A stretch of DNA of 64,000 nucleotides from Betaproteobacteria bacterium (GTDB lineage Bacteria > Pseudomonadota > Gammaproteobacteria > Burkholderiales > CAIKXV01), in NCBI GenBank assembly GCA_021298815.1, contig JAJTHE010000031.1, positions 21-64,020 of the forward strand. The letters run 5' to 3'. Below are positions 9,539 to 38,866 of the stretch, piece by piece. Under the pieces are notes generated by a model. That model did no database searches, was not told the origin of the DNA, and saw only the letters and a program-made list of their open reading frames with translations. Position 1 is the first letter of the stretch; every line of letters begins with the position of its first letter. The translations under genes and the position numbers were made by a program.

Positions 9539-9707
9539 CGTTCTATGGGGTCCGGGCAAGACCTGGCACGCGGCCAGGGACGGCAATCAGATGGGATGGC
9601 GCAACGTATACAGGCCGCGCCTTTCGCGAAGCTTGCACGGCCTTCAGACGGAAAACCGGGCACTGCCCGCCCTACCTCGACCCACGCGCCGGCCCCTGCG
9701 CCGGCCC

Positions 9708-17147: not shown

Positions 17148-18038
17148 TCAGGGCTTCTTCGCCACGCGCACCGCGCTCCAGGGCGCGCTGGAGGGCGGCG
17201 CGTTGTCGCCGTTGACCATCCGCACCGATCCCTTGATCGTGTTGCCCGAGACCCGACCGCTGTATTCGTGGCGGATACGCAGGCCGCCCGCGTCACCGAT
17301 CACCGTGAACGAGAGCTCGTCGCCGCGCAGCCGCGCATCCGTCAGCCAGAACGGGTCGTTGTCGATCTTCACCGGACCGCTGATCACCTGGAACTGCTGG
17401 CGCAGCTCGATGCTGAACTCCGGGTTGCCCTTGCCGACCGGCTGCTTCCAGGCCCATTCGCCCTCCACCCGCGCCGGCACGATCCACAGGTACACGCGCG
17501 TCCAGCCACGGTCGGCCCGGGCATCGGGCATCCACTCGGCCATGTCGAAATCGTGCGAGACGACGCGCGTGCCCGGCCGCAGCTCGGACAGGATGCGCGG
17601 ACGCAGCTTCAGGTTGACCGCGGGCAGCAGGTACATGGTGAGCACCGTCGCCTTCGACAGGTCGGTCTCGAACAGGTCGCGCTGGTAGAACGCGACCCGG
17701 TCGGCCACGCCTTCCTTCTCGGCGTTGCGCAGGGACAGCTTCCAGCGCTCGCTGTTCAGTTCCACGCCGAAGCCGGTTGCACCGAACTGCTTCGCGGCGG
17801 TGATCACGATCCTGCCGTCGCCCGACCCGAGGTCGATCAGGTAGTCCTTCGGGCCGACGCCGGCCATGCGCAGCATGCGGTCGACGGTCTCGTCGCTGGT
17901 CGGCACGAACGGCACGTCCAGCGGCCGGTCCATCGACTGTGCCAGCGCCGGCAGTGCCAGCGACCCGGTGCCGGCCAGCAGCGCCTGCATCCAGCGGCGG
18001 CGTTCACGGAATCGTTCGTCAAGTCCGGCTGCTGCCAT
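17148..18038 (-). CDS. exported class I SAM-methyltransferase-like protein, paralog A (subfamily I)
   Basis: GGAGA lies 8 nt upstream of ATG 18038 (alternative ATG at 18068). Signal: RERRRWMQALLAGTGSLALPALA|QS. VPFVPTSDETVDRMLRMAGVGPKDYLIDLGSGDGRIVITAAK; GFGVELN; ATVLTMYLLP; LRPGTRVVSHDF. C-terminal module: VPARVEGEWAW...PWSAVRVAKKP. Confidence 0.85.
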   Translation of the reverse strand: MAAAGLDERFRERRRWMQALLAGTGSLALPALAQSMDRPLDVPFVPTSDETVDRMLRMAGVGPKDYLIDLGSGDGRIVITAAKQFGATGFGVELNSERWKLSLRNAEKEGVADRVAFYQRDLFETDLSKATVLTMYLLPAVNLKLRPRILSELRPGTRVVSHDFDMAEWMPDARADRGWTRVYLWIVPARVEGEWAWKQPVGKGNPEFSIELRQQFQVISGPVKIDNDPFWLTDARLRGDELSFTVIGDAGGLRIRHEYSGRVSGNTIKGSVRMVNGDNAPPSSAPWSAVRVAKKP

Positions 18039-18132: not shown

Positions 18133-19158
18133 TCAGCGCTGGCGCGCCGGTTGCGCGGCAGGGTCCACCCTGCGCGCGAGGGTGGGTGCCGCAGGCTCCG
18201 CGGCCTGCGCGGCGTCGGCTGCAGCGGGGCGCACTGCGGCGACGGTCCACAGGCCCACCAGTTCGCCCGCGACCGAACGCCCTTCGAACGCATGCCGCAG
18301 GCGGCCGCCTGGCCCGTCGACGATCGCGCTGAAGGCCAGCCGGTCGCCGGAGAGCGTCGCCTGCGCGAGGCGTGCGCTGGCACCGCCGATGCGCACGCTG
18401 CCCGATACTTCCTGGTGGTTCTGCCGCAGGTCGAGCCGCCAGGTCTCGCTGCGGCCCCGGTGTTCGAAGCGGCCTTCCCACAGGCCGTTGACATAGGCCG
18501 GCACGATCCACAGGTAGAGCGTGCTGAACGGCGGACCGAACGCGCGGTCGGGCACCTCGACCTTGCCGGTCGCATCGGGCTTCCATCCCCCGAGGGGGAA
18601 ATCGTGCGACACGATCCGGGTCCCCGGACGCAGGCGCAGCAGGCGCGGCTGCAGTTCCACCAGCAGGCGCGGCAGCAGGTACAGGGTGACCACGGTCGCC
18701 GGCGACAGGTCGGTCTCGAACAGGTCGCGGCGTTCGAACAGCGCACGCGAGGCGACGCCCAGCCGCCGTGCCTCGTCGTTGCTCACCTGTACGAGGTCGG
18801 GGTCGAGTTCGACGCCGAGTCCGCGCGCGCCGCGGCTGCGCGCCGCCTCGATCACGACCCGGCCATCGCCGGACCCGAGGTCGATCACGAAATCCTTCTC
18901 GCCGACCTTGGCCAGCTCGAGCATCGCCTTCACCACCGGCCAGGGCGTGGGCACGTAGGGCACGCCGCCGGGAGAGGGTGTCTCGGATGCCTGGGCGCGG
19001 GCGGCATCCACCATCGCCGGCAGCGGCAGGACCCACAGGACCGCCGCGACCAGCAGGGCCGGCAGCGCGCGCAACCGCGTGCGCCGGGCGGACCGCTCCC
19101 GCGCCGCCCCCGCACCCGCACCCGCACCGCCTCGCATACTCCCCCGCATGCCCGCCAT
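18133..19158 (-). CDS. exported class I SAM-methyltransferase-like protein, paralog B (subfamily I)
   Basis: Signal: SARRTRLRALPALLVAAVLWVLPLPAMVDAARA|QA. VPYVPTPWPVVKAMLELAKVGEKDFVIDLGSGDGRVVIEAAR; LGVELD; ATVVTLYLLP; LRPGTRIVSHDF; VPAYVNGLWEG. Ala/Pro-rich C-terminal tail. The start could also be ATG 19149 or 19137. Confidence 0.8.
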   Translation of the reverse strand: MAGMRGSMRGGAGAGAGAARERSARRTRLRALPALLVAAVLWVLPLPAMVDAARAQASETPSPGGVPYVPTPWPVVKAMLELAKVGEKDFVIDLGSGDGRVVIEAARSRGARGLGVELDPDLVQVSNDEARRLGVASRALFERRDLFETDLSPATVVTLYLLPRLLVELQPRLLRLRPGTRIVSHDFPLGGWKPDATGKVEVPDRAFGPPFSTLYLWIVPAYVNGLWEGRFEHRGRSETWRLDLRQNHQEVSGSVRIGGASARLAQATLSGDRLAFSAIVDGPGGRLRHAFEGRSVAGELVGLWTVAAVRPAAADAAQAAEPAAPTLARRVDPAAQPARQR

Positions 19159-23525: not shown

Positions 23526-24554
23526 TCACTTCACGGCAACTGCCGGGCCGAAGTTCGCAGGGCGTGCCATGCTCCGGGAAAGCACGACCTGGCCCTGCAG
23601 CAGGGCAGGATTGTCGCTGCCGACCCGCACCGTGCCGGAAGCCTCCCCGCCCCGGGTCGCCGCGAGGATCTCGTGGCGCACCTGCTTGCCGCCGATCTCG
23701 GCGTTGAAGATCACGTTCAGGTCGTTGCCGACCATCTCGGCGAACGCGAGTGTCGCCGGCCGGCCGCCGAGGGTGACGCTGCCGGTGAGCAGCTGGAAGC
23801 GCTGCTCGAGGTCGAGCTCGACCGGGAGCACCTGGCCGCCCGCGACCGGCATCTTTCCCTGCCAGCGACCGCCGCCCTGCCCGGGGACGATCCACATGTA
23901 GACGTAGGCGAGGCCGGGCGTGCCGACCTTCTTCTCGGGCACGTCGAGGGTGATGCGATCGTCGGGCAGCCAGTCCTCGAAATGGTAGTCGTGGGTGACC
24001 ACGCGCGACCCGGGCCGCAGTTCGGCCAGCAGCTTGGGGCGCGCCATCATGTTGACCTCGGGCAGCAGGTACATGGTGACGACGTCGGCCTTGGTGAGGT
24101 CGGTCTTGAAGATGTCCCGCTGGAAGAACTGCACGCGGTCGGCGACGCCTGCCTGCTTCGCGGTGGCGTTCGCATGCCTGACCAGCTCGGGGTCCAGGTC
24201 GACGCCGAAGCCGCGCACGCCCATGCGCTGCGCCGCGGTGATGACGATGCGGCCATCGCCCGAGCCGAGGTCGACCAGGAAATCCTTCGCCCCGACGCGG
24301 CCCATGCGCAGCATCTCGTCGACCACCTTCTGCGGCGTCGGCACGTACGGCGACGAGTCGAAGCGGATCACCACGGCGTCGCGCGCCGCCGCCTGCGCGA
24401 ACGCCGACGGCGACGGCGACAGCGCGGCGCCGGCGGCGCCGGCAGCCAGGGCCTGCAGGGCCCTGCGGCGGCCGGCGGCGGCGGCGTGAAGGGCAGGATG
24501 CGCAGCGACGGGTGCCGCGGCGCGCAGCGGGGAAACGGGTGGGCGGATGTTCAT
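23526..24554 (-). CDS. exported class I SAM-methyltransferase-like protein, paralog C (subfamily I)
   Basis: The ATG at 24554 forms an ATGA overlap with the paralog D stop. Signal: AGRRRALQALAAGAAGAALSPSPSAFA|QA. SPYVPTPQKVVDEMLRMGRVGAKDFLVDLGSGDGRIVITAAQ; GFGVDLD; DVVTMYLLP; LRPGSRVVTHDY; VPGQGGGRWQG. Confidence 0.85.
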   Translation of the reverse strand: MNIRPPVSPLRAAAPVAAHPALHAAAAGRRRALQALAAGAAGAALSPSPSAFAQAAARDAVVIRFDSSPYVPTPQKVVDEMLRMGRVGAKDFLVDLGSGDGRIVITAAQRMGVRGFGVDLDPELVRHANATAKQAGVADRVQFFQRDIFKTDLTKADVVTMYLLPEVNMMARPKLLAELRPGSRVVTHDYHFEDWLPDDRITLDVPEKKVGTPGLAYVYMWIVPGQGGGRWQGKMPVAGGQVLPVELDLEQRFQLLTGSVTLGGRPATLAFAEMVGNDLNVIFNAEIGGKQVRHEILAATRGGEASGTVRVGSDNPALLQGQVVLSRSMARPANFGPAVAVK

Positions 24555-25507
24555 TTCGCGAGTCCGGTCGGTCGGAAATAGGCCGTGGTGCGGGCACGTT
24601 CCGCCCGCCACGGATAGGTAACCGTCTTGTAGTCGGGATCGTCGCGATGGACGACCTTGACGCTGCCTTCGATGCGATCGCCGCGCACCTTGCCGGAGAA
24701 CTCCTGCCGGGTCAGTCCGACCTTGTCGAGCGTGATCTCCATCGCGAACGAGAGGTCTTCGCCGCGCAGCTTCATGTCGGTGAACACGCCGCGGCGGTCG
24801 CCGACGCGGCAGATGCCCTCGGCCAGCTGGAAGAGCTGCTCGAGCAGTGCCTCGTAGCCCTGCGGGCTCCCGGTCACCGGCAGGTCCCAGTTCCAGTAGC
24901 CCTCGACCTTCGCGGGCACGACCCACACCAGCACGCGGCCGCCCTCGGTGTCGGTGAAGTCGGGCGTCCAGCCCGGCATCTCGAAGCCGTTGGACACCAG
25001 GCGCGTGCCGGGCCGCGCCTCGGCCAGCAGCTTCGGGCGCAGCAGCCGCATCAGTTCCGGGAACAGCCACATCGTGATCACCGTCGCCTCGCTGATGTCG
25101 GCGTCGAACACGTTGCGGTGGTAGAAACGGGCGCGATCGGCGAGCCCCTGCGCACGGGCGTTCTCGGTCGCCTCGGCCACCAGCGCCGGGTTGATGTCGA
25201 CCCCCCAGCCACGAACCTTCGGATTGGCCTTCAGGGCGCTGAGCACGATGCGCCCGTCCCCCGAACCGAGGTCGACGACCACGTCGTCGTCGCGCAGTTG
25301 CGCCATCTTCACCATGCGGTCGACGGTGAACTGCGGGCTGCCGACGAACAGCGAGAACCTTTCCTGCGCTCCGGCCACGCCGGGCAGCAAGGTCGTGCCG
25401 GCGAGCAGTGACAGGCAGGCGCGGCGGCGTGCGAGCGCCAGGGAGCCGGCCTGCGGCGCAACGTGCAGGCCGGGACTCGTGCTGGACTGGTTTCGTGCGG
25501 GACGCAT
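24551..25507 (-). CDS. exported class I SAM-methyltransferase-like protein, paralog D (subfamily II)
   Basis: Signal: LARRRACLSLLAGTTLLPGVAGA|QERFSLFVGSPQ. VVVDLGSGDGRIVLSALKANPKVRGWGVDIN; ATVITMWLFPELMRLLRPKLLAEARPGTR; VPAKVEGYWNW. C-terminus: PWRAERARTTAYFRPTGLAK. Confidence 0.85.
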   Translation of the reverse strand: MRPARNQSSTSPGLHVAPQAGSLALARRRACLSLLAGTTLLPGVAGAQERFSLFVGSPQFTVDRMVKMAQLRDDDVVVDLGSGDGRIVLSALKANPKVRGWGVDINPALVAEATENARAQGLADRARFYHRNVFDADISEATVITMWLFPELMRLLRPKLLAEARPGTRLVSNGFEMPGWTPDFTDTEGGRVLVWVVPAKVEGYWNWDLPVTGSPQGYEALLEQLFQLAEGICRVGDRRGVFTDMKLRGEDLSFAMEITLDKVGLTRQEFSGKVRGDRIEGSVKVVHRDDPDYKTVTYPWRAERARTTAYFRPTGLAK

Positions 25508-25510
25508 CGG

Positions 25511-26434
25511 CTACTTCAGGTCGATGCCGGTCGGACGGAACCAGCCGCTCTTGGCGACACGGCGCGCGATCCACGGCAGCTCGACCGTCTTGGCCTCGGC
25601 CACGGAAACCTTCACCGTGCCCTTGATCGTTTCGCCGTTCACCTTGCCGGAGAACTCGTGCTTGGTGCGGCCGACCCCGGTCAGCGTCATGTCGAACACG
25701 AAGGACAGGTCTTCGCCGCGCAGCTTCACGTCGGTCAGGCTCTCGCGCCGGTTGCCCACGCGCGCGAAGCCCTCGGCATTCTGGAACGCCTGGTTCATGA
25801 TCACGTCGTAGGTCTGGGTGGTGCCGCTCAGCGGCAGGTCCCAGGTCCAGAAGCCCGCCACGCGCGCGGGCACGATCCAGAGCATGATCGGGCTGGAGCC
25901 TTCGCGGTCGATCTGGTCGGGCTGCCAGAGCCCGAGGATGTTGTCGGTGCCGATCAGCTGGCCGTTGACGATCACGCGCGTGCCGGGGCGCGCCTCGGCG
26001 AGGATCTTCGGCTGCAGCAGCCGGGTGAGGTTGGCGAACAGCCACATGTTGATCACGTTGACCTCGCGCAGGTCGACGTCGAAGGCGTTGCGCTGGCTGA
26101 ACTGCGCACGATCGGACACGCCCTGCTTGGCCGCCTCTTCCGTCGCGGTCTTGACCAGCCATTCCTGCAGGTCGACGCCCCAGCCGCGCACCTTCGGGTT
26201 GCTCTTGACCGCGGCGATGATGATCTGCCCGTTGCCGGAGCCGAGGTCGGCGACGACCTCGCCGTCCTTCAGCGCGGCGAGCTTGATCATCCGGTTCACC
26301 GCGTCCTGGCTGCTCGGCCCGAACGGCGTGGCGTACTCCTGTGCCCGTGCCGACCGGATGGATCCGAAGGCCCCGGCGACCAGCCCGGCGGCGGCGGCCC
26401 CGGCGATGAACGTGCGACGCGACTGCTGTTCCAT
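25511..26434 (-). CDS. exported class I SAM-methyltransferase-like protein, paralog E (subfamily II; variant G-loop)
   Basis: The RBS GGGAGAA precedes ATG 26434. Classical Tat motif: MEQQSRRTFIAGAAAAGLVAGAFGSIRSARA|QE. The G-loop is DLGSGNGQIIIAAVKSNPKVRGWGVDL. VPARVAGFWTW. C-terminus: PWIARRVAKSGWFRPTGIDLK. Confidence 0.85.
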   Translation of the reverse strand: MEQQSRRTFIAGAAAAGLVAGAFGSIRSARAQEYATPFGPSSQDAVNRMIKLAALKDGEVVADLGSGNGQIIIAAVKSNPKVRGWGVDLQEWLVKTATEEAAKQGVSDRAQFSQRNAFDVDLREVNVINMWLFANLTRLLQPKILAEARPGTRVIVNGQLIGTDNILGLWQPDQIDREGSSPIMLWIVPARVAGFWTWDLPLSGTTQTYDVIMNQAFQNAEGFARVGNRRESLTDVKLRGEDLSFVFDMTLTGVGRTKHEFSGKVNGETIKGTVKVSVAEAKTVELPWIARRVAKSGWFRPTGIDLK

Positions 26435-26537
26435 GTGTTCTCCCTGTCCCTTCATGCGGATGTCCCGTGCCCGGCCACCCCTGGCCGGGCCTGCACTGCC
26501 TGCCTGCGCGCCGGCCCCCCGGCATGCAGGCGCGCGC

Positions 26538-27443
26538 CTATTTCGTCTCGACCCCCGTCGGACGGAAGTAAGCGGTCGTCGTGGTGCGCCGTGCAAGCCA
26601 TGGCAGTTCCACGTTCTTGCCATCGGGCGTGGACACCTTCACCGTGCCCTTGATCTGGTCGCCGTTGACCTTGCCGGCGAAATCGTGGCGGGTGAGGCCG
26701 ACCCCGTCGAGCGTCATCTCGACCGAGAACGAGAAATCCTCGCCGCGCAGCCTGACATTCTGCAGGATGCCTCGCCGGTTGCCCGCGCGGGTCACGCCTT
26801 CGGCCATCTGGAAGCGCTGCTCGAGGATCGCATCATGGGTGAACGGGATGCCGTTGATCGTGCTCTGCCACGACCAGTAGCCCTCGACCTTCGCCGGGAC
26901 GATCCACAAACCGACCGAGGAGCCGGCTTCCTTGTCCCATTCGTCGGCCTGCCACGAACCCATGTCGAACAGGTGGGTGAGCACGCGCGTGCCGGGCCTC
27001 GCCTCGGCGAGGATCTTCGGGCGCAGCAGGCGCATCAGTTCGGGGAACAGCCACATGTTGATCACGGTGACGTCGCGGATATCCGCGTCGAACACGTTGC
27101 GGTGGTAGAACTGCACGCGGTCGGCCACGCCCTGCTTCTTCGCCGCTTCGTTCGACTGCCGCACGAGGCTCTCGTTGATGTCCACGCCCCAGCCGCGCAC
27201 CTTCGGGTTGTCGCGCGCGGCGGTCAGCACGATGCGCCCGTCGCCCGACCCGAGGTCTACGACGACGTCGTTGTCCTGGATGCGCGCGAGCTTCACCAGC
27301 CGCTCCACCGTCGGCTGCGCGCTGGGCACGAACAGCGAGAAGCGCTCCTGCGCCAGGGCACCGGTCGCGCCGGCCAGCAGCATGGATGCGGCCACCAGCC
27401 CCTGCGCCGCACGAACCATCGAAAAACGTCCGTTCATGTTCAT
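26538..27443 (-). CDS. exported class I SAM-methyltransferase-like protein, paralog F (subfamily II)
   Basis: Sec-type signal: MNMNGRFSMVRAAQGLVAASMLLAGATGALA|QERFSLFVPSAQ. VVVDLGSGDGRIVLTAARDNPKVRGWGVDIN; MWLFPELMRLLRPKILAEARPGTR; VPAKVEGYWSW. C-terminus: PWLARRTTTTAYFRPTGVETK. Confidence 0.85.
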   Translation of the reverse strand: MNMNGRFSMVRAAQGLVAASMLLAGATGALAQERFSLFVPSAQPTVERLVKLARIQDNDVVVDLGSGDGRIVLTAARDNPKVRGWGVDINESLVRQSNEAAKKQGVADRVQFYHRNVFDADIRDVTVINMWLFPELMRLLRPKILAEARPGTRVLTHLFDMGSWQADEWDKEAGSSVGLWIVPAKVEGYWSWQSTINGIPFTHDAILEQRFQMAEGVTRAGNRRGILQNVRLRGEDFSFSVEMTLDGVGLTRHDFAGKVNGDQIKGTVKVSTPDGKNVELPWLARRTTTTAYFRPTGVETK

Positions 27444-27456
27444 CCTCGGATAGCAC

Positions 27457-28368
27457 TCACTTGATGTTGACGCCGGTGGGGCGGAACCACGATGCCGCGG
27501 TGCCGCGCCGCGCCACCCACGGCAGCTGCTGCGGCTTGCCCTCGGCCGGCGTGATCGTGACCGTACCGCGGATCTCCTCGCCCTCGACCTTGCCCGTGAA
27601 CGAATGGCGCGCGCGGCCGAAACCCTCGACCGTCACTTCCAGTTCGAACGAGATGTCCGCGCCGCGCAGGCGTGCCTCGGTCAGGTTCTCGCGCCGGTTG
27701 CCCACCCGCGCATGCCCTTCGATCTTCTGGAACTGCTGGCTGATCAGCAGGTCGTAGGAGCGCGCATCGCCGCCCAGCGGCAACTGCCACGACCACGCGC
27801 CTTCTACGCGCGCCGGCACGAACCAGACGAGGATCGGGCTCTGGGTGCCGTCGCCGCGATCGACGCGGTCCGGTTCCCAGTTGCCCATCATGTTCGCGTT
27901 GTCGATCAGTGCGCCGTTGATGATCACCCGGGTGCCCGGCCGCGCCTCGGCGAGGATCTTCGGCCGCAGCAGCTGGGTCAGGCTGCGGAACAGCCACATG
28001 TTGATCACCGTCACCTCGCGCAGGTCGACGTCGAACGCGTTGCGGTGGAAGAACTGCGCGCGGTCGGCCAGGCCTTCCTTCTTCGCCGTCTCGTTCGCCG
28101 CGGCCACCAGGCTGGCCTCGATGTCCACGCCCCAGCCGCGCACCTTCGGGTTGCTGCGCACCGCGGCGAGCACGATCCGCCCGTCGAACGAACCGAGATC
28201 GACGACGACATCGCCGTCGCGCAGGTTCGCCACCTTCACCATGCGGTCGATGATGAACGGGCTGCTGCCCGCCGGAAACGACCATTGCTCCTGGGCAAGG
28301 GCGACAGCCGGCAGCAGGGCACCGGCGATGAGAGCGACGCAGGCGCGCCGCAGGATGTTCAGGCGCAT
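27457..28368 (-). CDS. exported class I SAM-methyltransferase-like protein, paralog G (subfamily II; degenerate G-loop)
   Basis: The RBS GGAGG lies 5 nt upstream of ATG 28368. Signal: MRLNILRRACVALIAGALLPAVALA|QE. The G-loop is VVVDLGSFDGRIVLAAVRSNPKVRGWGVDIE (Gly to Phe). VPARVEGAWSW. C-terminus: PWVARRGTAASWFRPTGVNIK. Confidence 0.85.
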   Translation of the reverse strand: MRLNILRRACVALIAGALLPAVALAQEQWSFPAGSSPFIIDRMVKVANLRDGDVVVDLGSFDGRIVLAAVRSNPKVRGWGVDIEASLVAAANETAKKEGLADRAQFFHRNAFDVDLREVTVINMWLFRSLTQLLRPKILAEARPGTRVIINGALIDNANMMGNWEPDRVDRGDGTQSPILVWFVPARVEGAWSWQLPLGGDARSYDLLISQQFQKIEGHARVGNRRENLTEARLRGADISFELEVTVEGFGRARHSFTGKVEGEEIRGTVTITPAEGKPQQLPWVARRGTAASWFRPTGVNIK

Positions 28369-28381
28369 TCGGCCTCCATGG

Positions 28382-29323
28382 TCACTTGACGGCCAGCCCC
28401 GTGGGCTGGAAATAGGTGGTGCTGGTACTGCGCGTTGCACGCCACGGCAGGTCCACGGCCTTGCCACCGTCCGCAGTCACGCGCACCGTGCCCTCGATCG
28501 TGCCGCCCTTCACGGTGCCGCGGAACTCGTGCAGCACCGACACGCCGGGATCGAGCGTCATGCGCAGCCCGAACGAGACCTGGTCGCCGCGCAGCTTGAG
28601 GTCGGTGAAGTTGCCGCGCCGGTTGCCCACGCGCACGATGCCTTCACCCACCTGGAAGCGCTGCTCGACGATCGAGGCGTAGTTCATCGTCTGCCCGCCC
28701 ATCGGCAGCGACCAGTTCCAGAAGCCCTCGATCTTCGCCGGGACGATCCACAGGCTGATCCGGGCGTCGGCACCGGCACCGCCGAACTTGTCCGGGGCGA
28801 AGAAGGTGAGCTGCTCGTCGGGTTCCCAGGTGCCGAAGCCGAAGTCGTGGCTGACGATGCGCGTGCCCGGCTGCAGCTCGTTCAGCAGCTTGGGGCGCAG
28901 CAGCCGCATCAGTTCCGGGAACAGGTACATGTTCACCACCGTCGCCTTGCGCAGGTCGACGTCGAACACGTTCTGGTGCATGAAGCTCACCCGGTCGCCG
29001 ACGCCGGACTTGCGCGCGATCGAAGAGGCCAGCTCGACCAGTTCCGGGTTGATGTCGACGCCGAAGCCGCGCGCCCCGTGCAGCCGGGCCGCAGTGGTGA
29101 CGATCCGCCCGTCGCCCGACCCGAGGTCGACCACCACGTCGGACTTGCCGACGTTGGCCATCTTCGCCATCGCCTCGGCCACGCTCTGCGGGCTGGGCAC
29201 GTACAGCGAGAACCGCTCCTGTGCCTGCCCCGGCTTCGCCCCGGCGAGCAGGCCGAGCAGCAGTGCACCGCAGGCTGCCAGCGCCGTGCGCCGGCGGTGC
29301 GGGGCGTGGCGTCGTTCGGTCAT
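28382..29323 (-). CDS. exported class I SAM-methyltransferase-like protein, paralog H (subfamily II, first gene of the H-to-C run)
   Basis: Signal: MTERRHAPHRRRTALAACGALLLGLLAGAKPGQA|QERFSLYVPSPQ. VVVDLGSGDGRIVTTAARLHGARGFGVDIN; MYLFPELMRLLRPKLLNELQPGTRIVSHDF; VPAKIEGFWNW. C-terminus: PWRATRSTSTTYFQPTGLAVK. Confidence 0.85.
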   Translation of the reverse strand: MTERRHAPHRRRTALAACGALLLGLLAGAKPGQAQERFSLYVPSPQSVAEAMAKMANVGKSDVVVDLGSGDGRIVTTAARLHGARGFGVDINPELVELASSIARKSGVGDRVSFMHQNVFDVDLRKATVVNMYLFPELMRLLRPKLLNELQPGTRIVSHDFGFGTWEPDEQLTFFAPDKFGGAGADARISLWIVPAKIEGFWNWSLPMGGQTMNYASIVEQRFQVGEGIVRVGNRRGNFTDLKLRGDQVSFGLRMTLDPGVSVLHEFRGTVKGGTIEGTVRVTADGGKAVDLPWRATRSTSTTYFQPTGLAVK

Positions 29324-29561
29324 TGTGTTTCCGCTGGCAGGCTGTGCGTTGCCGTTCCCCTGTTCGTCTGGCATTTCCGATCGTGTTCCCGTGGCTTTCG
29401 TCGTCGTGGCGTATGGTGGAAATCGTCGGTCCCGTGCGTGCGGCACCGAAACGCGCGGAGCGCAGTTTGCCTGCAACCGCGCAGAAAGTCAGTCCGTCGA
29501 ATGCATTCGTCCCGTGCCGGCAGCGGACCTGACATCCGGACGACGCCCGGCCGGGCATCCG

Positions 29562-29581
29562 GGGCGGTTCCCGCGCCGCCC
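29562..29581 (-). terminator. GC-rich hairpin in the 270-nt spacer separating the two paralog runs
   Basis: Minus strand reads GGGCGG-CGCGGGAA-CCGCCC, about 12 nt after the paralog I stop. There is no U-tract, so this is only a candidate. Confidence 0.2.
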
Positions 29582-29592
29582 GGCAAGCCGGC

Positions 29593-30522
29593 TCACCGCA
29601 CGGCGGTCCGGCGCGCCTGCCAGCGGGTCTCGACGCCGCGGTCGTTGCGCGCGATGCCGCCCATCGTCTCGCCCTCGACCCGGCCCTCGAACTGCCAGGG
29701 CGCGGCTGGCGGCCCGCCGGCGCGCACCGGCAGGGCGACAGTAAAACGCACCCGCTCCCCGGCCAGCCGGGCATCGCGCACCTCGAGGACCTGGCGTCCG
29801 AGGGACAGTTCCGCATCCAGCACCTGGTGCACCTGCTGCAGCCGCAGCTCGGCCGGCACCGACGGCAGGCTGTCGGCCGGTGCTCCCGACCAGCTCACCG
29901 CCCAGCGGCCATGCACCTCCGCCGGCACGACGTACAGGAAGACCGTGCTGTTGCCGCCGCGCCCATCGTTCTTCTCGGGCGCGAAGAAGGTTTCAGACGC
30001 GTCAGCCTGCCAGCCCTCGAACGGAAAATCGTGGCTCACGATCCGGCTGCCCGGCCGCAGCTGGCGCAGCAGCACCGGGCGCAGGCCCTGCACGATTGGC
30101 GGCAGCAGGTACAGGGTGACCACGGTCGCCTTGCGCACGTCCGTGGCGAACACGTCGCCGCGCTCGAAGCGGACGCGGTCGCCGACGCCGGAGGCAGCCG
30201 CATTGCGATTGGAAAGCTCGACCAGCATGGCATCGAGGTCGACGCCGCCGCCGCTGGCACCGAACTTGAGCGCGGCGGCGATCGGGATGCGCCCGTCGCC
30301 GGACCCGAGGTCGATCACATGGTCGCCCTTGCCCACCGAGGCGATCGACAGCATACGCATCACGGTGTTGCCGGGCGTGGTGATGAACGGCGAGAACGGC
30401 TTGTCGTCCTGCGCCCGGGCGACGCCGGCCACCAGGGCCGCCGGCATCGCCGCGGCTGCGGGCAGCAGTCCGATGGCGCGGACCAGGCGCCTGCGCGGGC
30501 AGCGGTGCGCCGCGGCGCCCAC
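29593..30522 (-). CDS. exported class I SAM-methyltransferase-like protein, paralog I (subfamily I)
   Basis: GTG start directly abuts the paralog J stop (0-nt spacer). Signal: CPRRRLVRAIGLLPAAAAMPAALVAGVARA|QD. SPFITTPGNTVMRMLSIASVGKGDHVIDLGSGDGRIPIAAAL; ATVVTLYLLP; LRPGSRIVSHDF; VPAEVHGRWAV. C-terminus: RWQARRTAVR. Confidence 0.8.
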   Translation of the reverse strand: MGAAAHRCPRRRLVRAIGLLPAAAAMPAALVAGVARAQDDKPFSPFITTPGNTVMRMLSIASVGKGDHVIDLGSGDGRIPIAAALKFGASGGGVDLDAMLVELSNRNAAASGVGDRVRFERGDVFATDVRKATVVTLYLLPPIVQGLRPVLLRQLRPGSRIVSHDFPFEGWQADASETFFAPEKNDGRGGNSTVFLYVVPAEVHGRWAVSWSGAPADSLPSVPAELRLQQVHQVLDAELSLGRQVLEVRDARLAGERVRFTVALPVRAGGPPAAPWQFEGRVEGETMGGIARNDRGVETRWQARRTAVR

Positions 30523-31464
30523 CTAGCGCGTCCCCGCTGACGGATCGATCGACGCGGCCCTGCCGCCGGTACGCACCGCTGACCAGGGTGAGGTCTGCTC
30601 GACCCTGTCGAACGTTCGTACCGTGCCTTCGATCGTTTCGCCGCGGGCGCGGCCGACGAAATCATGGCGAAGCGTGCGGCCATTCAGCTCGACGGCCGCG
30701 CTGATGCGCACGTCCTCGCCGCGCAGCGTGGTGAGCGATACGTTCATCGGCCGCCCGGCCGCGGTGCCGCGCACCTCGAGGTCCTGCAGCCGCTGGCGCA
30801 CCGCCACCTCCACCGGCTGGCCGCCGGGCAGCTTCCACTGCCAGTTGCCGGAGACGTTGGCCGGCACGATCCAGAGATAGACATAGCTGACCCCCGGGTT
30901 GCCGACCTGCTTCTCGGGCACCTGCATGGTGACCGATTCCTCGGCCTGCCAGTCGCCCATGTTGTAGTCGTGCGACACGATGCGCGAGCCGGGTCGCAGT
31001 TCGGCCAGCAGCTTGGGACGCAGCTTCAGGTTCAGCTCGGGCAGCAGGTAAAGCGTGATCACGCTCGCGGCGCTGACGTCGGTCTCGAACATGTTGCGCC
31101 TGATGAAGGCGACACGATCGGCGACGCCCTGCTTCTTCGCGTTCTCGTTGGCCTGGCGCAGCAGTTCGTCGTCGAGGTCGAAGCCGCGGCCGCCCTTGGC
31201 GCCGAACTTCGCCACCGCGGTGATCAGCTGGCGGCCGTCGCCCGACCCCAGGTCGATCACGAAGTCGGACGGACCGACCCGGGCCATCGTCATCATGCGG
31301 TTCACCACCACCTGTGGCGTGGGCACGTAGACCACGTCGCCGGCGCCGGTCTGGGCACGCAGCAGCGGCGCCAGGGCCGCGGCGCCGGTGCCTGCAGCGG
31401 CCACCGCGACGGCGGCGAGCAGCCGCCGCCGCGAAGGATCGGCTTTCGAATGACTGGAATCCAT
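30523..31464 (-). CDS. exported class I SAM-methyltransferase-like protein, paralog J (subfamily I)
   Basis: The RBS GGAGGT lies 6 nt upstream of ATG 31464. Tat-like signal: DPSRRRLLAAVAVAAAGTGAAALAPLLRA|QT. VVYVPTPQVVVNRMMTMARVGPSDFVIDLGSGDGRQLITAVA; ASVITLYLLP; LRPGSRIVSHDY; VPANVSGNWQW; PWSAVRT. Confidence 0.85.
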   Translation of the reverse strand: MDSSHSKADPSRRRLLAAVAVAAAGTGAAALAPLLRAQTGAGDVVYVPTPQVVVNRMMTMARVGPSDFVIDLGSGDGRQLITAVAKFGAKGGRGFDLDDELLRQANENAKKQGVADRVAFIRRNMFETDVSAASVITLYLLPELNLKLRPKLLAELRPGSRIVSHDYNMGDWQAEESVTMQVPEKQVGNPGVSYVYLWIVPANVSGNWQWKLPGGQPVEVAVRQRLQDLEVRGTAAGRPMNVSLTTLRGEDVRISAAVELNGRTLRHDFVGRARGETIEGTVRTFDRVEQTSPWSAVRTGGRAASIDPSAGTR

Positions 31465-31484
31465 GCAGGTACCTCCGGAAGCCT

Positions 31485-32408
31485 TCACTTGATCCTGGAT
31501 GCGGCGAACGCCGTCGTCGCGGCGATCGTCGACTCGATGCTGCCTTCCATCCGGTCGCCGTCGACCCGGGCGCGCACGATCGCACGACCGGCACGCCCGC
31601 CCGGCGCCTCGACCGGCAGCGCGAAGCGCAGGTCGAGACCGCGGAGCGAGGTCGCGTCGAGGCGGCGCGCAGCGCGCCCGGCCGCGGCGAGCGTACCCTC
31701 GAAGTCGTTCAGGCCCTGCTGCAGCGACAGCTCGACGCGATCGAAGGCCGGGTTCCCCGGCGCGCTGACCGTCCAGCGTCCGTCGACCCGGGCCGGCACC
31801 AGGAACAGGTACACGGTCGCGTCGGGCACGCCGGTGATCGCCGCCTTCTCCGGCACGTCGAAGGTGACGTGGCTTGCCGCGCGCCAGTCCTCGAAGTGGT
31901 AGTCGTGGGCGACGATGCGCGTGCCGGGCCGCAGGTCGGTGAGGAAGCGCGGGCGCAGCTTCATCATCATCCACGGCAGCAGGTACAGCGTGAGCACCGT
32001 CGCCTCGCGAACGTCGGTGTCGAAGATGTTCCGTTCCTCGAAGCGCACGAGGTGGCCCACCCCTTCCCGGGCCGCCGTGTCGTTGGCCAGGCGCACGAGG
32101 TCGCCGTCGATGTCGACACCATAGCCGCGCGCGCCGTGCCGCTTCGCGGCGGAGATCACCAGCCGGCCGTCGCCGCAGCCGAGATCCATCACGAGGTCCT
32201 GCGCGCGGATGCCGCCGGCACCGATCATCTGGTCGACCACCGGCCAGGGCGTGGGCACGTACGGCCCGCCATTGCGGTCGAGCGGCTTCTTCCCTGCTGG
32301 CGCCTGCGCCAGCAGGGACATGGCGCCGGCTGCAAGCCCGGCACCGCCTGCCCCGGTGGCAAGCGCGAGCAGTGCGCGCCGGCGGGTGCGGATGCGGGCG
32401 GCGTCCAT
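31485..32408 (-). CDS. exported class I SAM-methyltransferase-like protein, paralog K (subfamily I)
   Basis: The start overlaps the paralog L stop (TGATG). Tat-like signal: IRTRRRALLALATGAGGAGLAAGAMSLLA|QA. GPYVPTPWPVVDQMIGAGGIRAQDLVMDLGCGDGRLVISAAK; ATVLTLYLLP; LRPGTRIVAHDY; VPARVDGRWTV. Confidence 0.85.
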   Translation of the reverse strand: MDAARIRTRRRALLALATGAGGAGLAAGAMSLLAQAPAGKKPLDRNGGPYVPTPWPVVDQMIGAGGIRAQDLVMDLGCGDGRLVISAAKRHGARGYGVDIDGDLVRLANDTAAREGVGHLVRFEERNIFDTDVREATVLTLYLLPWMMMKLRPRFLTDLRPGTRIVAHDYHFEDWRAASHVTFDVPEKAAITGVPDATVYLFLVPARVDGRWTVSAPGNPAFDRVELSLQQGLNDFEGTLAAAGRAARRLDATSLRGLDLRFALPVEAPGGRAGRAIVRARVDGDRMEGSIESTIAATTAFAASRIK

Positions 32409-33346
32409 CAGCTGCCGCGCACGTAGGTCCAGGCGCCCTCGGGCCCGGGTTCGGCGGCCACGGTGCGGACCATCCGGAACGGCGTCTCGCTGCGCCGGCC
32501 TTCGGTCTCGGTACGGAAATAGCCTTCGATGGTATTGCCCTTCGGATCGGTGCCGCGTGCGACGCGCCCGAAGAAGCGGCGGAAGGTGAACTGACGGTCG
32601 ACCTCTTCCATCATGATGAAGGTGAGACCGTCGCCGGCGAGCCGGATGTCGCGCAGGCCGACCTTCGCGCCATCGGCCTTCACCTCGGCGTCGATGTCCT
32701 GGAAGCGCTGGCGGAACACGATCTCGTGGTTGCGCGTGCCCGCGCCGGGAAGGTCGAGCCGGGCCGTCCAGGTGCCCGCGATGCGCGCCGGTATCCACCA
32801 GAAGTAGACATGGCTGCCGTAGTCGCGCAGCCGGATGTGCAGGTCGGGCTTCCAGTCGCCGAGGTCGAAGTCGTGCGACACGATGCGCGTGCCCGGCCGC
32901 AGTTCCGCCAGCAGCTTGGGCCGCACCCGCAGGTTCACCTTCACGCCCAGGTAGAGCGTCACCACCGTCGCCTTCGACAGGTCGGCGTCGAACAGGTTCC
33001 GCTCGGTGAAGCGCACACGGTCCGACACGCCGGCGACCTTCGCCAGCTCGATGCTTTCCTGCACCAGCGCCGGGTCGATCTCGTAGCCGATGCCGGGTGC
33101 GCCCCAGTCGCGAGCCGCCGCGATGTTGATGCGGCCATCGCCCGAACCGAGGTCGACCACGAAGTCCTTCGGCGTGACGTTCGCGATGCGCAGCATCGTG
33201 TCGATCAGCGTGAAGTTGGTCGGCGCGAACGGCACGTCGAGCTTGAGTTGAGCAAGCGCGCTGGCGGGCAGCACCGCGGTCGTGCCGCCGGCGGCGGCCG
33301 ACAGCGCGGCGAGCAGCGAGCGGCGGCGGGGATTCGGCAGCATCAA
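32408..33346 (-). CDS. exported class I SAM-methyltransferase-like protein, paralog L (subfamily I, first gene of the L-to-I run)
   Basis: Tat-like signal: MMLPNPRRRSLLAALSAAAGGTTAVLPASALA|QL. VPFAPTNFTLIDTMLRIANVTPKDFVVDLGSGDGRINIAAAR; ATVVTLYLG; LRPGTRIVSHDF; IPARIAGTWTA. Confidence 0.85.
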   Translation of the reverse strand: MMLPNPRRRSLLAALSAAAGGTTAVLPASALAQLKLDVPFAPTNFTLIDTMLRIANVTPKDFVVDLGSGDGRINIAAARDWGAPGIGYEIDPALVQESIELAKVAGVSDRVRFTERNLFDADLSKATVVTLYLGVKVNLRVRPKLLAELRPGTRIVSHDFDLGDWKPDLHIRLRDYGSHVYFWWIPARIAGTWTARLDLPGAGTRNHEIVFRQRFQDIDAEVKADGAKVGLRDIRLAGDGLTFIMMEEVDRQFTFRRFFGRVARGTDPKGNTIEGYFRTETEGRRSETPFRMVRTVAAEPGPEGAWTYVRGS

Positions 33347-35308: not shown

Positions 35309-35444
35309 CCCTGAATCCTCCCGTGTCGACAGGTTTGCCCGGCCGGATGCCCCCATCCTGCCGCAGGCCGAGTGTGCACCTTTGCCGTGTGCCGGCAAGC
35401 GTGCACAGGGAGCGGGACGCTTCAGGCGCGGATGGTGCGCCGAA

Positions 35445-35942: not shown

Positions 35943-36053
35943 CAAGGGATTCTCCTTCAGGTGTTTCGGATCAACGGGATTGCACGGGCGCGGTACGCAG
36001 CGATCGCGCCCGCGGCGCGGGCCGCGCACGATGGACCCGCGCACTGCCGCCGG

Positions 36054-36983
36054 TCAGCGCGCGAGCCGCGCTTCCCATTTCGCCGTCGCCGCGGACGCCC
36101 GGGCGTTGAACGTCGCCGTGCCGGCCACCGTGTCGCCCTTCACCAGCCCGTCGAACTCGTGCCGGAAGCGTTCCGCGCGGCCGGACGGCTCGAGCGCGAA
36201 GCGGAACCGCTCGCCATCGATACGCAGTCCGGCGAGCTCGACCGGCTGCCCGTTCAGGGTCGCCTTGCCGGTCAGCATCTGGTAGGACTGCGACACGGCA
36301 AGCTCCACCCGTCCGCCCCCCTGCGCGGCCGGCAGTTCGAACGCCCAGCGGCCGGCGACCTGCGCCGGGACCGTCCACAGCATCAGCGTGCTGTGCCGGT
36401 CGCGCCCGACCGGCTTGTCGGGCACGAACATGCGCAGCGAGATGTCCGGCTGCCAGTCGGCCAGCATCGCGTAGTCGTGCGACACGATGCGGGTTCCGGG
36501 GCGCAGCGCGGCGAGCTTCGGGGTGAGCAGCTGCATCACCTTCGGCAGCAGGTAGAGGCTGACCACCGTCGCCTTCGAGAAATCGGACTCGAACAGGTCC
36601 TGGGTCAGGAACTGGGCACGGTCGCTGATGCCCATCTTCTTGGCCGACTGGCGGCTGCGTTCGATCAGCCGCGGATCGATCTCGATGCCATGCCCGCGGG
36701 CGCCGAACTTCGCCACGGCCGTCAGCACGATGCGCCCGTCGCCGGAACCGATGTCGATCAGGTAGTCGCCCTTGCCGACGCCGGCGAGGTGGAGCATCCG
36801 CTCGACCACGTCCGCGGGGGTAGGCACGTAGGGCGTATCGGTGTCCTCGTCGACGATGCCGGCATCGGCCGAGCTGCGCGTGGCCGGCGCGGTGCCGGCC
36901 TGCGCCAGGACCGTGGCGGGGACCAGCACGGCACCCATCGCGGCCACCAGCACCAGCACCGACAGCGCCCGTGCCGGTGTCAT
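36054..36983 (-). CDS. exported class I SAM-methyltransferase-like protein, paralog M (subfamily I, solitary copy)
   Basis: Sec-type signal: MTPARALSVLVLVAAMGAVLVPATVLA|QA. TPYVPTPADVVERMLHLAGVGKGDYLIDIGSGDGRIVLTAVA; GHGIEID; ATVVSLYLLP; LRPGTRIVSHDY; VPAQVAGRWAF. C-terminus: KWEARLAR. Confidence 0.85.
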   Translation of the reverse strand: MTPARALSVLVLVAAMGAVLVPATVLAQAGTAPATRSSADAGIVDEDTDTPYVPTPADVVERMLHLAGVGKGDYLIDIGSGDGRIVLTAVAKFGARGHGIEIDPRLIERSRQSAKKMGISDRAQFLTQDLFESDFSKATVVSLYLLPKVMQLLTPKLAALRPGTRIVSHDYAMLADWQPDISLRMFVPDKPVGRDRHSTLMLWTVPAQVAGRWAFELPAAQGGGRVELAVSQSYQMLTGKATLNGQPVELAGLRIDGERFRFALEPSGRAERFRHEFDGLVKGDTVAGTATFNARASAATAKWEARLAR

Positions 36984-37198
36984 CGGACATGCCTTCCGTG
37001 GACGGGACGCGGCGCCGGAGGGATCTGCAACGGGGAACAGCGTCATCGACGACCTTTCAGCGACTGCCTGGGCGGCAAGTCTAGCAAACGCGAGGAACGG
37101 GAATTTGACCGCTGCGGCGCCCACGCGCCCGCCGTACAATCCGCGACCGCCAGAATACCCCCGGCGCGGCGCCCACGCCCCGTTCCGGTCCCCCGACC

Positions 37199-38866
37199 AT
37201 GTTCCTGCTGCACGCGATCATCTTCTCCACCGGAGGCGCGATCCTCGCGCTGGAACTGCTCGCCTCCCGCATCATGACGCCCTATTTCGGCGTCAGCATC
37301 TACATCTGGACCGGCATCCTGTCGATCACCCTGATCGCGCTGGCCGCCGGCTACTGGTTGGGGGGAAAGGTGACCCATGCCAGCCGCAAGCCGTCGATCG
37401 ACCGGCTCGCGCAGTGGTACCTGGCACAGCCGGCCTGGGCCGGGCTCTCCATCGTCGCCGCCTGCCTGGTGTATCCGTACGCCTTCCATTCGCTGGCAAG
37501 CTTCGACCTGGTGATCGGGGCGTTCGTCGCCTGCATGGTCCTGCTGTTCCTGCCGCTGCTCACCACCTCGGCGATGAACCCCCTGCTGGTGGCGATCATG
37601 ACCCAGTCGGCGCGGGGCGCCGCGACGGACGACGAGCGCAAGCCGACCCGCGGCGAAGAACGCCAGGCCACGGTGCTCGAGCAGCTCGACGCAGGCTCCG
37701 GACGCGTGTTCTTCGTCAGTACCGTGGGATCGGTCGCGGGCGTGATCGTCACCGCCTTCGTGCTGATGCCCTACATGTCGAACTACGACGCGGTGCTGGC
37801 GGTCGCGCTGGTGCTGTCGCTGCTGTCGCTCGCCGGCGCGCTGCGCCCCCCGGTGGCGGTCGCCAGCCGCAACCGACTGCTGGCGGTAGGCACCGCGGCG
37901 ACCCTGGCCTCGGGCGGCCTGCTCGTGTTCTCGGACGCCTACCTCGACCGGATGTGGCCTGCGCGCTACGGCGGCGTCGAATGGCAGAAGACGGCCGAGT
38001 ACGGTTCGCTGTTCGGCACCGTAAAGATCCTCGCCGGGCCGGTGGGCGCGCGCCCGGAGGCGCAGATGCGCATCTACTTCCAGGATGGCCTGGTGCAGAA
38101 CACGCTCGATTCGGGCAACCGTTCGCAGTCGTTCTTCACCTACGGGCTGGAAGGACTGGTGCATGCCTACCGGCCGCAGGCGCGCCGCGTGCTGGTGCTG
38201 GGGCTCGGCGCCGGCGTGGTGCCGATGTCCCTGGCCCGGCAGGGCATCGAGGTCACCGCGGTCGAGATCGACCCGGTGTCCTTCGAGGTCGCACGGAAGC
38301 ATTTCGGCTTCGACGCCACGCGGGTGCAGGCGATCGAAGCCGATGCGCGCACCTTCCTGCGCGCCTGCAAGGCCGGCTACGATGCAGTCGTGGTCGACCT
38401 GTTCCACGGCGACGGCATCCCCGAGTACCTGATCACGCGCGACTTCTTCAACGACCTGCGCGGCTGCTTGAAGCCCGACGGCGTGGCCGTGTTCAACACC
38501 TTCGTCGACCTCGACCGGCCTTCGGTCTATGCGCATTTCCTGGTGACCCTGCATGCCGAACTGCCCGAGATCGTCGTCTACCGCCCGGATGCGGGCGGGT
38601 CGCGCCACGTGAACAGCTTCGTAGTCGCGGGAGCCGCCCGCCTGGTGCCGCCGGAGCCGGTGCGCCTGCGCGACGCACCGTCGCGGCATGCGGCGACGCT
38701 GCAGGCGATGATGGAACGTCCGAACAAACTCGACTCGGATACGCTGCGCCGGGGCGCGATCATCACCGATGCGCGCAACACGATCTCCCTCGACATCGCC
38801 GCTGCCCAGATGGCCTACCGCAGGCTGGTGATAGAAACGGTACCTCCGGCCTTCCTGCTCAACTGA
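37199..38866 (+). CDS. membrane-fused spermidine-synthase-like protein (polytopic N-terminal domain plus class I MTase-fold C-terminal domain)
   Basis: 555 aa. The N-terminus has about 7 TM segments (MFLLHAIIFSTGGAILALELLASRIMTPYFGVSIYIWTGILSITL...). The C-terminus reads RVLVLGLGAGVVPMSLARQGIEVTAVEIDPVSFEVARKHFGF...YDAVVVDLFHGDGIPEYL...LKPDGVAVFN. Confidence 0.8.
   Translation: MFLLHAIIFSTGGAILALELLASRIMTPYFGVSIYIWTGILSITLIALAAGYWLGGKVTHASRKPSIDRLAQWYLAQPAWAGLSIVAACLVYPYAFHSLASFDLVIGAFVACMVLLFLPLLTTSAMNPLLVAIMTQSARGAATDDERKPTRGEERQATVLEQLDAGSGRVFFVSTVGSVAGVIVTAFVLMPYMSNYDAVLAVALVLSLLSLAGALRPPVAVASRNRLLAVGTAATLASGGLLVFSDAYLDRMWPARYGGVEWQKTAEYGSLFGTVKILAGPVGARPEAQMRIYFQDGLVQNTLDSGNRSQSFFTYGLEGLVHAYRPQARRVLVLGLGAGVVPMSLARQGIEVTAVEIDPVSFEVARKHFGFDATRVQAIEADARTFLRACKAGYDAVVVDLFHGDGIPEYLITRDFFNDLRGCLKPDGVAVFNTFVDLDRPSVYAHFLVTLHAELPEIVVYRPDAGGSRHVNSFVVAGAARLVPPEPVRLRDAPSRHAATLQAMMERPNKLDSDTLRRGAIITDARNTISLDIAAAQMAYRRLVIETVPPAFLLN

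Follow-up and report, generated by a model that had tools for sequence, protein, structure and literature searches.

Methyltransferase paralogs with export signals, their LAT/SLC7-like exchanger partner, and the possible supply of S-adenosylmethionine outside the cytoplasm

We analyzed a 64,000-nucleotide (nt) stretch of DNA, here called the window, from an assembly assigned to Betaproteobacteria bacterium (GCA_021298815.1, contig JAJTHE010000031.1, positions 21 to 64,020). Its GC content is about 70%, and it encodes 13 paralogous proteins of 296 to 342 amino acids (aa), every one on the minus strand, that join an N-terminal export signal to an S-adenosylmethionine (SAM)-dependent methyltransferase domain and a C-terminal beta-barrel (Table 1). 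An earlier, sequence-only reading had drawn attention to these proteins as enzymes that need a cytoplasmic cofactor and yet carry export signals, many of them resembling those used in twin-arginine translocation (Tat). It had placed all of them between positions 23526 and 33346. Ten do lie there, as a tight array (23526-33343) in which the spacing of neighbors runs from a 4-nt overlap to a 269-nt gap; three (P1, P2, and K) lie outside it. Pairwise identity among the 13 is just 34-45%, which implies that the duplications are old.

Twelve of the paralogs were located in a six-frame motif scan by G-loops resembling D-L-G-S-G-D-G, and the 13th, with DIGSGDG, by reading the open reading frames (ORFs). 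Start codons were picked by position and by upstream purine-rich sites; the resulting starts and lengths agree with genes called independently in three publicly available copies of the contig, two from JGI metagenomes and one from the metagenome-assembled genome GCA_046346235.1. The start of P2 is ambiguous (19158, 19149, or 19137).

Table 1. Methyltransferase paralogs and their two membrane-protein neighbors in the window. The arrow marks the apparent signal cleavage site.
Gene	Label in the sequence-only reading	Coordinates	Strand	Remarks
APC-superfamily LAT/SLC7-like amino-acid exchanger, 453 aa		15657..17018	-	PF13520, 161 bits; directly downstream of P1
Paralog P1	A	17148..18038	-	Signal MAAAGLDERFRERRRWMQALLAGTGSLALPALA↓Q, methyltransferase, barrel; NF041081 E = 6.6e-38
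Paralog P2	B	18133..19158	-	..SARRTRLRALPALLVAAVLWVLPLPAMVDAARA↓Q; RR 4 residues before a strongly hydrophobic core
Paralog A	C	23526..24554	-	..AAGRRRALQALAAGAAGAALSPSPSAFA↓Q; fits the TatP regular expression; motifs all intact
Paralog B	D	24551..25507	-	..ARRRACLSLLAGTTLLPGVAGA↓Q; SAM motifs retained
Paralog C	E	25511..26434	-	MEQQSRRTFIAGAAAAGLVAGAFGSIRSARA↓Q; nearest of all to the Tat consensus
Paralog D	F	26538..27443	-	Sec-type signal without RR: MNMNGRFSMVRAAQGLVAASMLLAGATGALA↓Q
Paralog E	G	27457..28368	-	MRLNILRRACVALIAGALLPAVALA↓Q; G-loop DLGSFDG
Paralog F	H	28382..29323	-	MTERRHAPHRRRTALAACGALLLGLLAGAKPGQA↓Q; RR absent from the sister-genome ortholog
Paralog G	I	29593..30522	-	..CPRRRLVRAIGLLPAAAAMPAALVAGVARA↓Q; Arg in the c-region
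Paralog H	J	30523..31464	-	MDSSHSKADPSRRRLLAAVAVAAAGTGAAALAPLLRA↓Q; protein used for modeling
Paralog I	K	31485..32408	-	MDAARIRTRRRALLALATGAGGAGLAAGAMSLLA↓Q
Paralog J	L	32408..33343	-	MLPNPRRRSLLAALSAAAGGTTAVLPASALA↓Q; opens the ten-gene operon
Paralog K	M	36054..36983	-	Sec-type MTPARALSVLVLVAAMGAVLVPATVLA↓Q; divergent from the fused MFS/spermidine-synthase gene
Fused MFS/spermidine-synthase-like membrane protein		37199..38866	+	NF037959, 154.7 bits (cutoff 40)

The methyltransferase domain is of a known kind. For all seven paralogs tested, the top family match was NF041081, an archaeal protein-lysine methyltransferase model (77 to 130 bits, E-values of 1e-22 to 1e-38), although none of the seven reached its curated cutoff of 200 bits. 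The closest solved structures found by phmmer were 5fa8, 5fad, and 5bxy (E ~1e-37), which are bound to SAM or to S-adenosylhomocysteine (SAH). An AlphaFold (AF2) model of paralog H, built on 85 relatives, had a pLDDT of 90.7, and Foldseek aligned it to the same three structures with E-values of ~1e-19, target TM scores of 0.89-0.92, and 42-45% identity; queried with the full model, the search recovered the methyltransferase domain alone. These structures belong to aKMT of Sulfolobus islandicus (PDB 5FA8, 5FAD, and 5JWJ), a broad-specificity protein-lysine methyltransferase, and to a homolog from Salinibacter ruber (5BXY). The window proteins share with them a compact seven-beta-strand fold, the SAM-binding motifs, an N-terminal VPYVPTP segment, and SH(D/E)F...W, at about 42-45% identity over some 140 residues. 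As deposited, the two known proteins are single domains of about 160 aa, whereas the window proteins add a signal peptide, a barrel of about 110 aa, and linkage to a transporter. aKMT is in turn a distant relative of human FAM173A and FAM173B (PMC9006661). On sequence and model evidence, the domain is thus an aKMT/FAM173-type seven-beta-strand SAM-dependent N-methyltransferase, with activity predicted; public sources name members of the family only "class I SAM-dependent methyltransferase." Larger relatives of about 500 aa occur in Planctomycetota/Gemmatales (P0023-P0031, P0089, P0095, and P0114), where a signal peptide, a TIGR03000-type region, and Lys/Pro/Glu-rich linkers accompany the same domain, and some of these may hold two methyltransferase domains.

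The sequence-only reading had called the SAM-binding motifs intact. The G-loop, the beta2 acid, and N/D-x-F-x-x-D are indeed kept in 12 of the 13 paralogs, the exception being paralog E, which is probably SAM-defective or a pseudo-enzyme because its G-loop reads DLGSFDG; in paralog C the loop has become DLGSGNGQ. Both the SAM pocket and the acceptor-side residues are nearly invariant over the 85 relatives, where W172, H165-D166, and VPTPQ hardly vary. In the window, (Y/F)VPTP and SH(D/E)(F/Y)...W are kept with small changes in nine paralogs and are degenerate in the other four, B through E (24551-28368), which have lost YVPTP and SHD(F/Y); paralog B, for example, has FVGSP for YVPTP and SNGF for SHDF. 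The Trp is invariant throughout. Judging from these substitutions, paralogs B through E may be pseudo-enzymes or enzymes with an altered acceptor. Paralogs C and E also carry 6-residue insertions after beta5, in the case of E alongside the Gly-to-Phe change in the G-loop. Paralogs B through F (24551-29323) have a C-terminal tail in common, [YW]F[RQ]PTG[LVI]xxK, which we considered as a feature of the family and rejected: only 4 of 186 members scanned have it, all in one syntenic sister genome (L007), so it is lineage specific.

The final ~110 residues of the paralogs form eight sequential beta-strands in the model of paralog H (30526-30879, minus strand). Modeled alone, this region had a pLDDT of 89, and a Foldseek search with it against the PDB returned no significant match, the best being a Cap15 barrel, FABP, bradavidin, PvdP, and Tp0751 (TM ~0.5, E ≥0.014). 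It is probably an eight-stranded up-and-down, calycin-like barrel with the role of holding or presenting the acceptor. A search with a profile made from all 13 barrels retrieved 3077 cluster representatives at E ≤1e-3, among them signal-peptide proteins with 3-7 tandem copies (P0121 and P0127) and fusions to an FGE-sulfatase domain (P0162) or to a penicillin-amidase fragment and a SnoaL-like domain (P0128). These proteins, and the fact that no Pfam model covers the region, indicate an undescribed extracytoplasmic module, one that is widespread in its own right.

All 13 paralogs have, by our heuristic calls, a positively charged n-region, a hydrophobic core, and a small-x-small cleavage site. 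The sequence-only reading had described an A-x-A↓Q-type site throughout and RR or RRR before the core in ten; we found small-x-A↓Q in every protein, 17-30 residues past the charged n-region, counted ten with RR or RRR directly before an uncharged core, and located each of the peptides that had been quoted. P2 has its RR farther upstream, and paralogs D and K, earlier judged to be Sec-type, have none. Export is a property of the family at large: about 180 of 187 members carry a signal, mostly Sec-type and in some cases lipoprotein-type. The 80 genome loci taken from species representatives contain 136 members, of which 129 had an N-terminal hydrophobic signal and just 30 had RR, while in independent metagenome loci a signal was present in 50 of 51 members, several with lipoboxes (..LLFSGC, ..LLVSGC, and ..MVAGC). 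A homolog search with paralog H returned relatives at 50-55% identity with classical Sec signals (MK.., a hydrophobic core, and A-x-A↓QE). Export signals thus stand on enzymes with a complete SAM-binding site, SAM is not known to occur outside the cytoplasm, and the puzzle of cofactor supply noted for this array is real and extends to the whole cross-phylum family. Members at three metagenome loci (L116, L124, and L146) have a lipobox Cys in place of A-x-A↓Q, and others in Armatimonadota (L062) and Desulfuromonadales (L027) look signal anchored.

The suggestion that the signals are Tat-type stood only in part. Seven paralogs (A, C, F, G, H, I, and J) match the TatP expression RR.[FGAVML][LITMVF], compared with 7 of 54 GC-matched relatives (p = 0.003), and RR at the core is likewise in excess (10 of 13 versus 18 of 54; Fisher p = 0.01). 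Cores are less hydrophobic in the RR-type paralogs than in relatives without RR (Mann-Whitney p = 0.003), and four paralogs have Arg at -2. Of the 21 orthologs of paralog H, 20 retain RR, as do 6 of the 9 L007 orthologs of RR-bearing array genes; in L007 the remainder of each signal has diverged beyond recognition. On the other side, RR at the core climbs with GC content across the family (6% below 60% GC, 15% at 60-65%, and 38% at 65-70%), and no scanned paralog reached the cutoff of a curated TAT model (PF10518, PF10399, or TIGR02811; P2 and D were outside these scans). When ten isolated N-termini were searched at E-values up to 10, eight had no match and two fell below the cutoff; the subthreshold scores were those of paralog C with PF10518 (19.8 versus 22.7 bits) and paralog H with PF10399 (23.3 versus 24), H having a second at 23.4 versus 48.45. 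Full-length scans detected no TAT-signal model in paralog K. Paralog C, with SRRTF, had been put forward as the textbook Tat signal; its sister-genome ortholog lacks RR, as do those of E and F. An RND-type membrane-fusion lipoprotein elsewhere in the window (8426-9586, minus strand) has RR in its lipoprotein signal (SRRATRAATLAAILLVAGC, MSSIHSRRATRAATLAAILLVAGC), so that RR in the n-region is not specific to Tat in this genome. As we read it, Tat may be the route for some of these proteins in this lineage of 70% GC, but the family does not require it. The L007 ortholog of paralog A (~11.1 kb) has a perfect fourfold STQL repeat in the linker after its signal, which is not in the window protein.

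P1 and the exchanger gene downstream of it represent the canonical arrangement of a methyltransferase followed by a permease. The permease scores 161 bits against a cutoff of 27 with the Pfam model AA_permease_2 (PF13520), conserves the G-x-G-I-F motif of transmembrane segment 1, and has as its nearest solved relatives the SLC7 obligate exchangers y+LAT1/2, BasC, xCT, and LAT1/2 (E-values of 1e-44 to 1e-31). LAT is the subfamily nearest to it; its score with the LAT model TIGR00911 is far below the cutoff (182 versus 702 bits), and it belongs to a subfamily of its own, defined by adjacency to exported methyltransferases. Homologs of the permease were present in 35 of 82 genome loci; 34 of the 35 adjoin a methyltransferase of the family, 34 are on the same strand, and the methyltransferase comes first in 29. 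All 35 methyltransferases adjacent to a permease have export signals. The loci are spread over at least eight phyla, with hosts in the Burkholderiales, Desulfuromonadales, Fibrobacteres, Bacteroidales, Armatimonadota, Balneolaceae, Nostoc, Acidobacteria, and others. In addition, a plasmid search found two cultured bacteria, Agrobacterium salinitolerans and Chelatococcus sp. CO-6, to carry a methyltransferase beside an "amino acid permease" that is 42-45% identical to the one in the window. In the reciprocal test, metagenome contigs were searched with a permease alignment: 58 of 80 loci had a methyltransferase within 600 nt, and 25 of the 28 whose flanks reached 900 nt or more on each side had one. 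The exchanger is therefore a conserved operon partner of the exported methyltransferases across phyla. There is a single permease for arrays of up to 7-10 methyltransferases, and in most Burkholderiales loci the methyltransferase adjoining it is of the paralog H type.

ORFs of about 700 aa that suggested methyltransferase-permease fusions (L006, L022, L023, and L028), and with them evidence on topology, were rejected, their upstream parts being out-of-frame, stop-free translations of methyltransferase genes in high-GC DNA. HtpG, RecJ, PrfB, LysS, RimO, a thiolase, and Bug/TctC proteins were also set aside as partners, since their proximity reflects housekeeping synteny inside the Burkholderiales and not a cross-phylum association. 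At three single-copy loci, a tRNA gene lies just upstream of the methyltransferase-permease pair on the opposite strand (L019, 1148-1220; L022, 3663-3735; L054, 9544-9615).

A second membrane protein is linked to the arrays in Burkholderiales. The fused MFS/spermidine-synthase-like gene is divergent from paralog K, and homologs with 53-57% identity, likewise divergent, head methyltransferase arrays at ten further Burkholderiales loci (L005, L006, L010, L011, L014, L015, L016, L021, L030, and L049). Seven hydrophobic segments are conserved among the homologs. Over 11 homologs, the mean numbers of Lys plus Arg residues in loops 2-3, 4-5, and 6-7 are 3.3, 3.0, and 2.3, compared with 1.0, 0.3, and 0.0 in the other loops, which by the positive-inside rule predicts that the C-terminal SAM-fold domain is periplasmic. 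The product thus appears to be a second SAM-family enzyme facing out of the cytoplasm. Directly downstream on the plus strand, at 38.9-41.9 kb, are envelope-directed genes for DsbD (DsbD_N, DsbD_TM, and thioredoxin domains) and a TlpA-like redoxin.

The gene context points to an answer beyond the four that the sequence-only reading had offered for the cofactor puzzle, namely a dedicated transporter partner in the membrane. What has been established is the architecture, the fold, the conservation of the motifs, the presence of export signals throughout the family, and the linkage to the exchanger. We infer that the enzymes act beyond the cytoplasm on amine acceptors that the barrel presents, and that the exchanger brings them SAM and removes SAH. 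In the model that we favor, the proteins would be exported, some of them possibly by Tat in this lineage, and would fold in the periplasm, where they would methylate amine acceptors, with protein lysines, polyamines, or lipid head groups as candidates. The partner exchanger would deliver SAM, a cationic amino acid, and take back SAH, a single exchanger thus supplying many methyltransferases; in Burkholderiales, the membrane-anchored spermidine-synthase-like neighbor would draw on the same supply. Exchange of SAM for SAH is suggested by the ratio of one exchanger to many methyltransferases and by the exchanger-type relatives of the permease, as well as by the chemistry of the two compounds, alpha-amino acids of which SAM is cationic and SAH neutral. 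It also has precedents. Yeast Sam3 and Escherichia coli MmuP are APC-type permeases for sulfonium amino acids, and mitochondrial SAMC and Chlamydia CTL843 are SAM/SAH antiporters. That the 13 window proteins methylate amines in the periplasm with SAM obtained through the exchanger is a tentative reading, to which we give somewhat less than an even chance. The broader model, in which a LAT-type exchanger in many phyla swaps SAM out for SAH and feeds exported N-methyltransferases with ligand-holding barrels and, in Burkholderiales, a membrane-anchored periplasmic aminopropyl- or methyltransferase, seems to us rather unlikely as a whole.

A number of observations weigh against supply by the exchanger. 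SAM transport is proposed by analogy, and the substrates of the LAT family are ordinary amino acids; moreover, with a membrane potential that is negative inside, cation export comes at a high price in the absence of compensation. No permease was found within the flanks examined in 47 of the 82 genome loci, many of which are on short contigs, and in the window the ten-gene array lies 6.5 kb from the permease. Rfam scans detected no SAM or SAH riboswitch in the window, nor in nine partner-containing loci, where they returned tRNAs and an IS3 frameshift element. Paralogs B through E may be inactive, given the drift of their substrate-side motifs. Finally, the signal and topology calls come from our own hydropathy and regular-expression scripts and from reading by eye, and are heuristic, in place of SignalP, TatP, or DeepTMHMM predictions.

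The same linkage might mean that the exported methyltransferase modifies the cargo of the exchanger, an amino acid or amine whose methylation on the outside would precede import or follow export, or else a periplasmic lysine of the exchanger itself, with SAM coming from the MFS/spermidine-synthase-like protein, from leakage, or from the environment. Eukaryotic family members do methylate membrane carriers (PMC9006661). The tight operon, the cationic or neutral amino acids carried by relatives of the exchanger, and the second linked membrane protein with its MFS-like domain in Burkholderiales would all suit such a role, but it still calls for a periplasmic source of SAM, and one exchanger per 5-13 diverged methyltransferases is better matched to a shared currency than to a cargo for each enzyme; we consider it improbable, if worth keeping in view. 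Slightly more doubtful is that the fold has become a noncatalytic receptor, which binds SAM, SAH, or another adenosyl amino acid and passes it to the exchanger for uptake, as in scavenging. The residues of the SAM pocket are the best-conserved part of the protein, and a soluble periplasmic protein paired with a secondary transporter recalls TRAP and TTT transport; Burkholderiales typically possess numerous orphan Bug/TctC binding proteins for each transporter, and the window itself has two Bug genes. Binding alone, however, needs none of the acceptor-side residues (H-D-F/Y, the invariant Trp, and VPTP) that are conserved family-wide, the extra barrel and 13 diverged paralogs are hard to square with a single ligand, and we know of no binding-protein-dependent APC transporter.

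Had the enzymes folded and bound SAM in the cytoplasm and crossed by Tat, each could perform one methyl transfer in the periplasm, as the sequence-only reading had envisaged. The frequency of RR and of TatP matches in the window, the weakly hydrophobic cores, the Arg residues at -2, the retention of RR in orthologs with otherwise scrambled signals, and the subthreshold TAT scores of paralogs C and H are consistent with this route. Sec and lipoprotein signals, which most relatives and some relatives, respectively, possess, direct unfolded chains, so preloading via Tat cannot be the general answer. Even for the window the chance is slim: RR follows GC content, occurs in a lipoprotein signal, and is gone from the orthologs of C, E, and F, no curated TAT model scores above its cutoff, and 13 gene copies of a single-turnover enzyme would be wasteful. 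High-GC bacteria, moreover, route many cofactor-less proteins through Tat. Onward secretion, with Sec or Tat as the first step only and the enzymes acting in the medium or in another cell that contains SAM, we regard as very unlikely. A periplasmic intermediate would fit type II secretion, and secreted bacterial methyltransferases that work inside host cells exist, but there are no secretion-system genes near the arrays, lipoprotein-anchored and signal-anchored members occur, and the hosts live freely in soil and water and come from many phyla; that the genes are linked to an inner-membrane exchanger speaks instead for action at the envelope of the producer. An uncleaved anchor with unexpected topology, leaving the domain in the cytoplasm, was rejected, because positive charges precede the core and acidic or neutral residues follow it, in conflict with the positive-inside rule, and because A-x-A↓Q is conserved.

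Supply by the exchanger has partial parallels among known systems. FAM173A/ANT-KMT and FAM173B/ATPSc-KMT, distant homologs of aKMT, are targeted to the membrane by a hydrophobic stretch at the N terminus, and their substrates are lysines of inner-membrane transport proteins (PMC9006661), a theme that the pairing of methyltransferase and transporter genes here echoes. In the FAM173 proteins the transmembrane anchor stays uncleaved, and the compartment in which they work imports SAM, whereas the window proteins have a cleavable-looking A-x-A↓Q site, an added barrel, and a predicted location in the periplasm. Among the known SAM carriers, mitochondrial SAMC, Chlamydia CTL843, Rickettsia RP076, and yeast Sam3, of the APC superfamily, the resemblance lies in dedicated SAM transport, or SAM/SAH exchange, that feeds methyltransferases in another compartment; to our knowledge, however, all bacterial SAM carriers import SAM into the cytoplasm and are of the DMT family. 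Extracytoplasmic enzymes that rely on a cofactor made in the cytoplasm include the Tat-exported, pyridoxal phosphate (PLP)-containing PvdN and the periplasmic flavin transferase ApbE/Ftp, which uses flavin adenine dinucleotide (FAD) outside the cytoplasm. With PLP and flavin there is regeneration or a single transfer; SAM, in contrast, is spent at each turnover, and the family described here consists mostly of proteins that are not Tat substrates.

In the textbook view, SAM-dependent methylation is confined to the cytoplasm, and the known periplasmic modifications use lipid-linked or membrane-relayed donors. The literature that we searched held nothing of relevance on periplasmic methyltransferases, Tat export of a SAM-dependent methyltransferase, SAM export to the periplasm or an exporter for it, or a fused MFS spermidine synthase. 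Nor did it contain the combination of these two domains in an exported protein, the barrel as a module, the pairing with a LAT-type exchanger across phyla, or the link to a membrane-anchored spermidine-synthase-like protein. With nearly every member exported, eight or more phyla represented, and a dedicated exchanger as operon partner, the family turns the question of periplasmic SAM into a testable two-gene system. If the exchanger does move SAM, it would be the first SAM export system and would serve the first periplasmic methylation pathway, implying a new transporter function and a new type of modification in the envelope, whether on proteins, polyamines, or lipids, and it would explain the presence of up to 13 copies in soil and freshwater Burkholderiales. 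If it does not, the family is still a clear-cut example of recruitment, in which an enzyme fold has been brought into a compartment that lacks its co-substrate.

Long ORFs of up to 1039 aa that cross the array in antisense orientation or in another frame (27845-30526 and 34158-37277 on the plus strand, 23526-26525 on the minus strand, and similar ones) are stop-free artifacts of the 70% GC content. Farther along the minus strand, at 44.7-59.7 kb and 60.0-61.4 kb, are a nuoA-N operon that is complete by eye and then secG and tpiA, an ordinary chromosomal context that supports a Burkholderiales-like chromosome over a mobile element.

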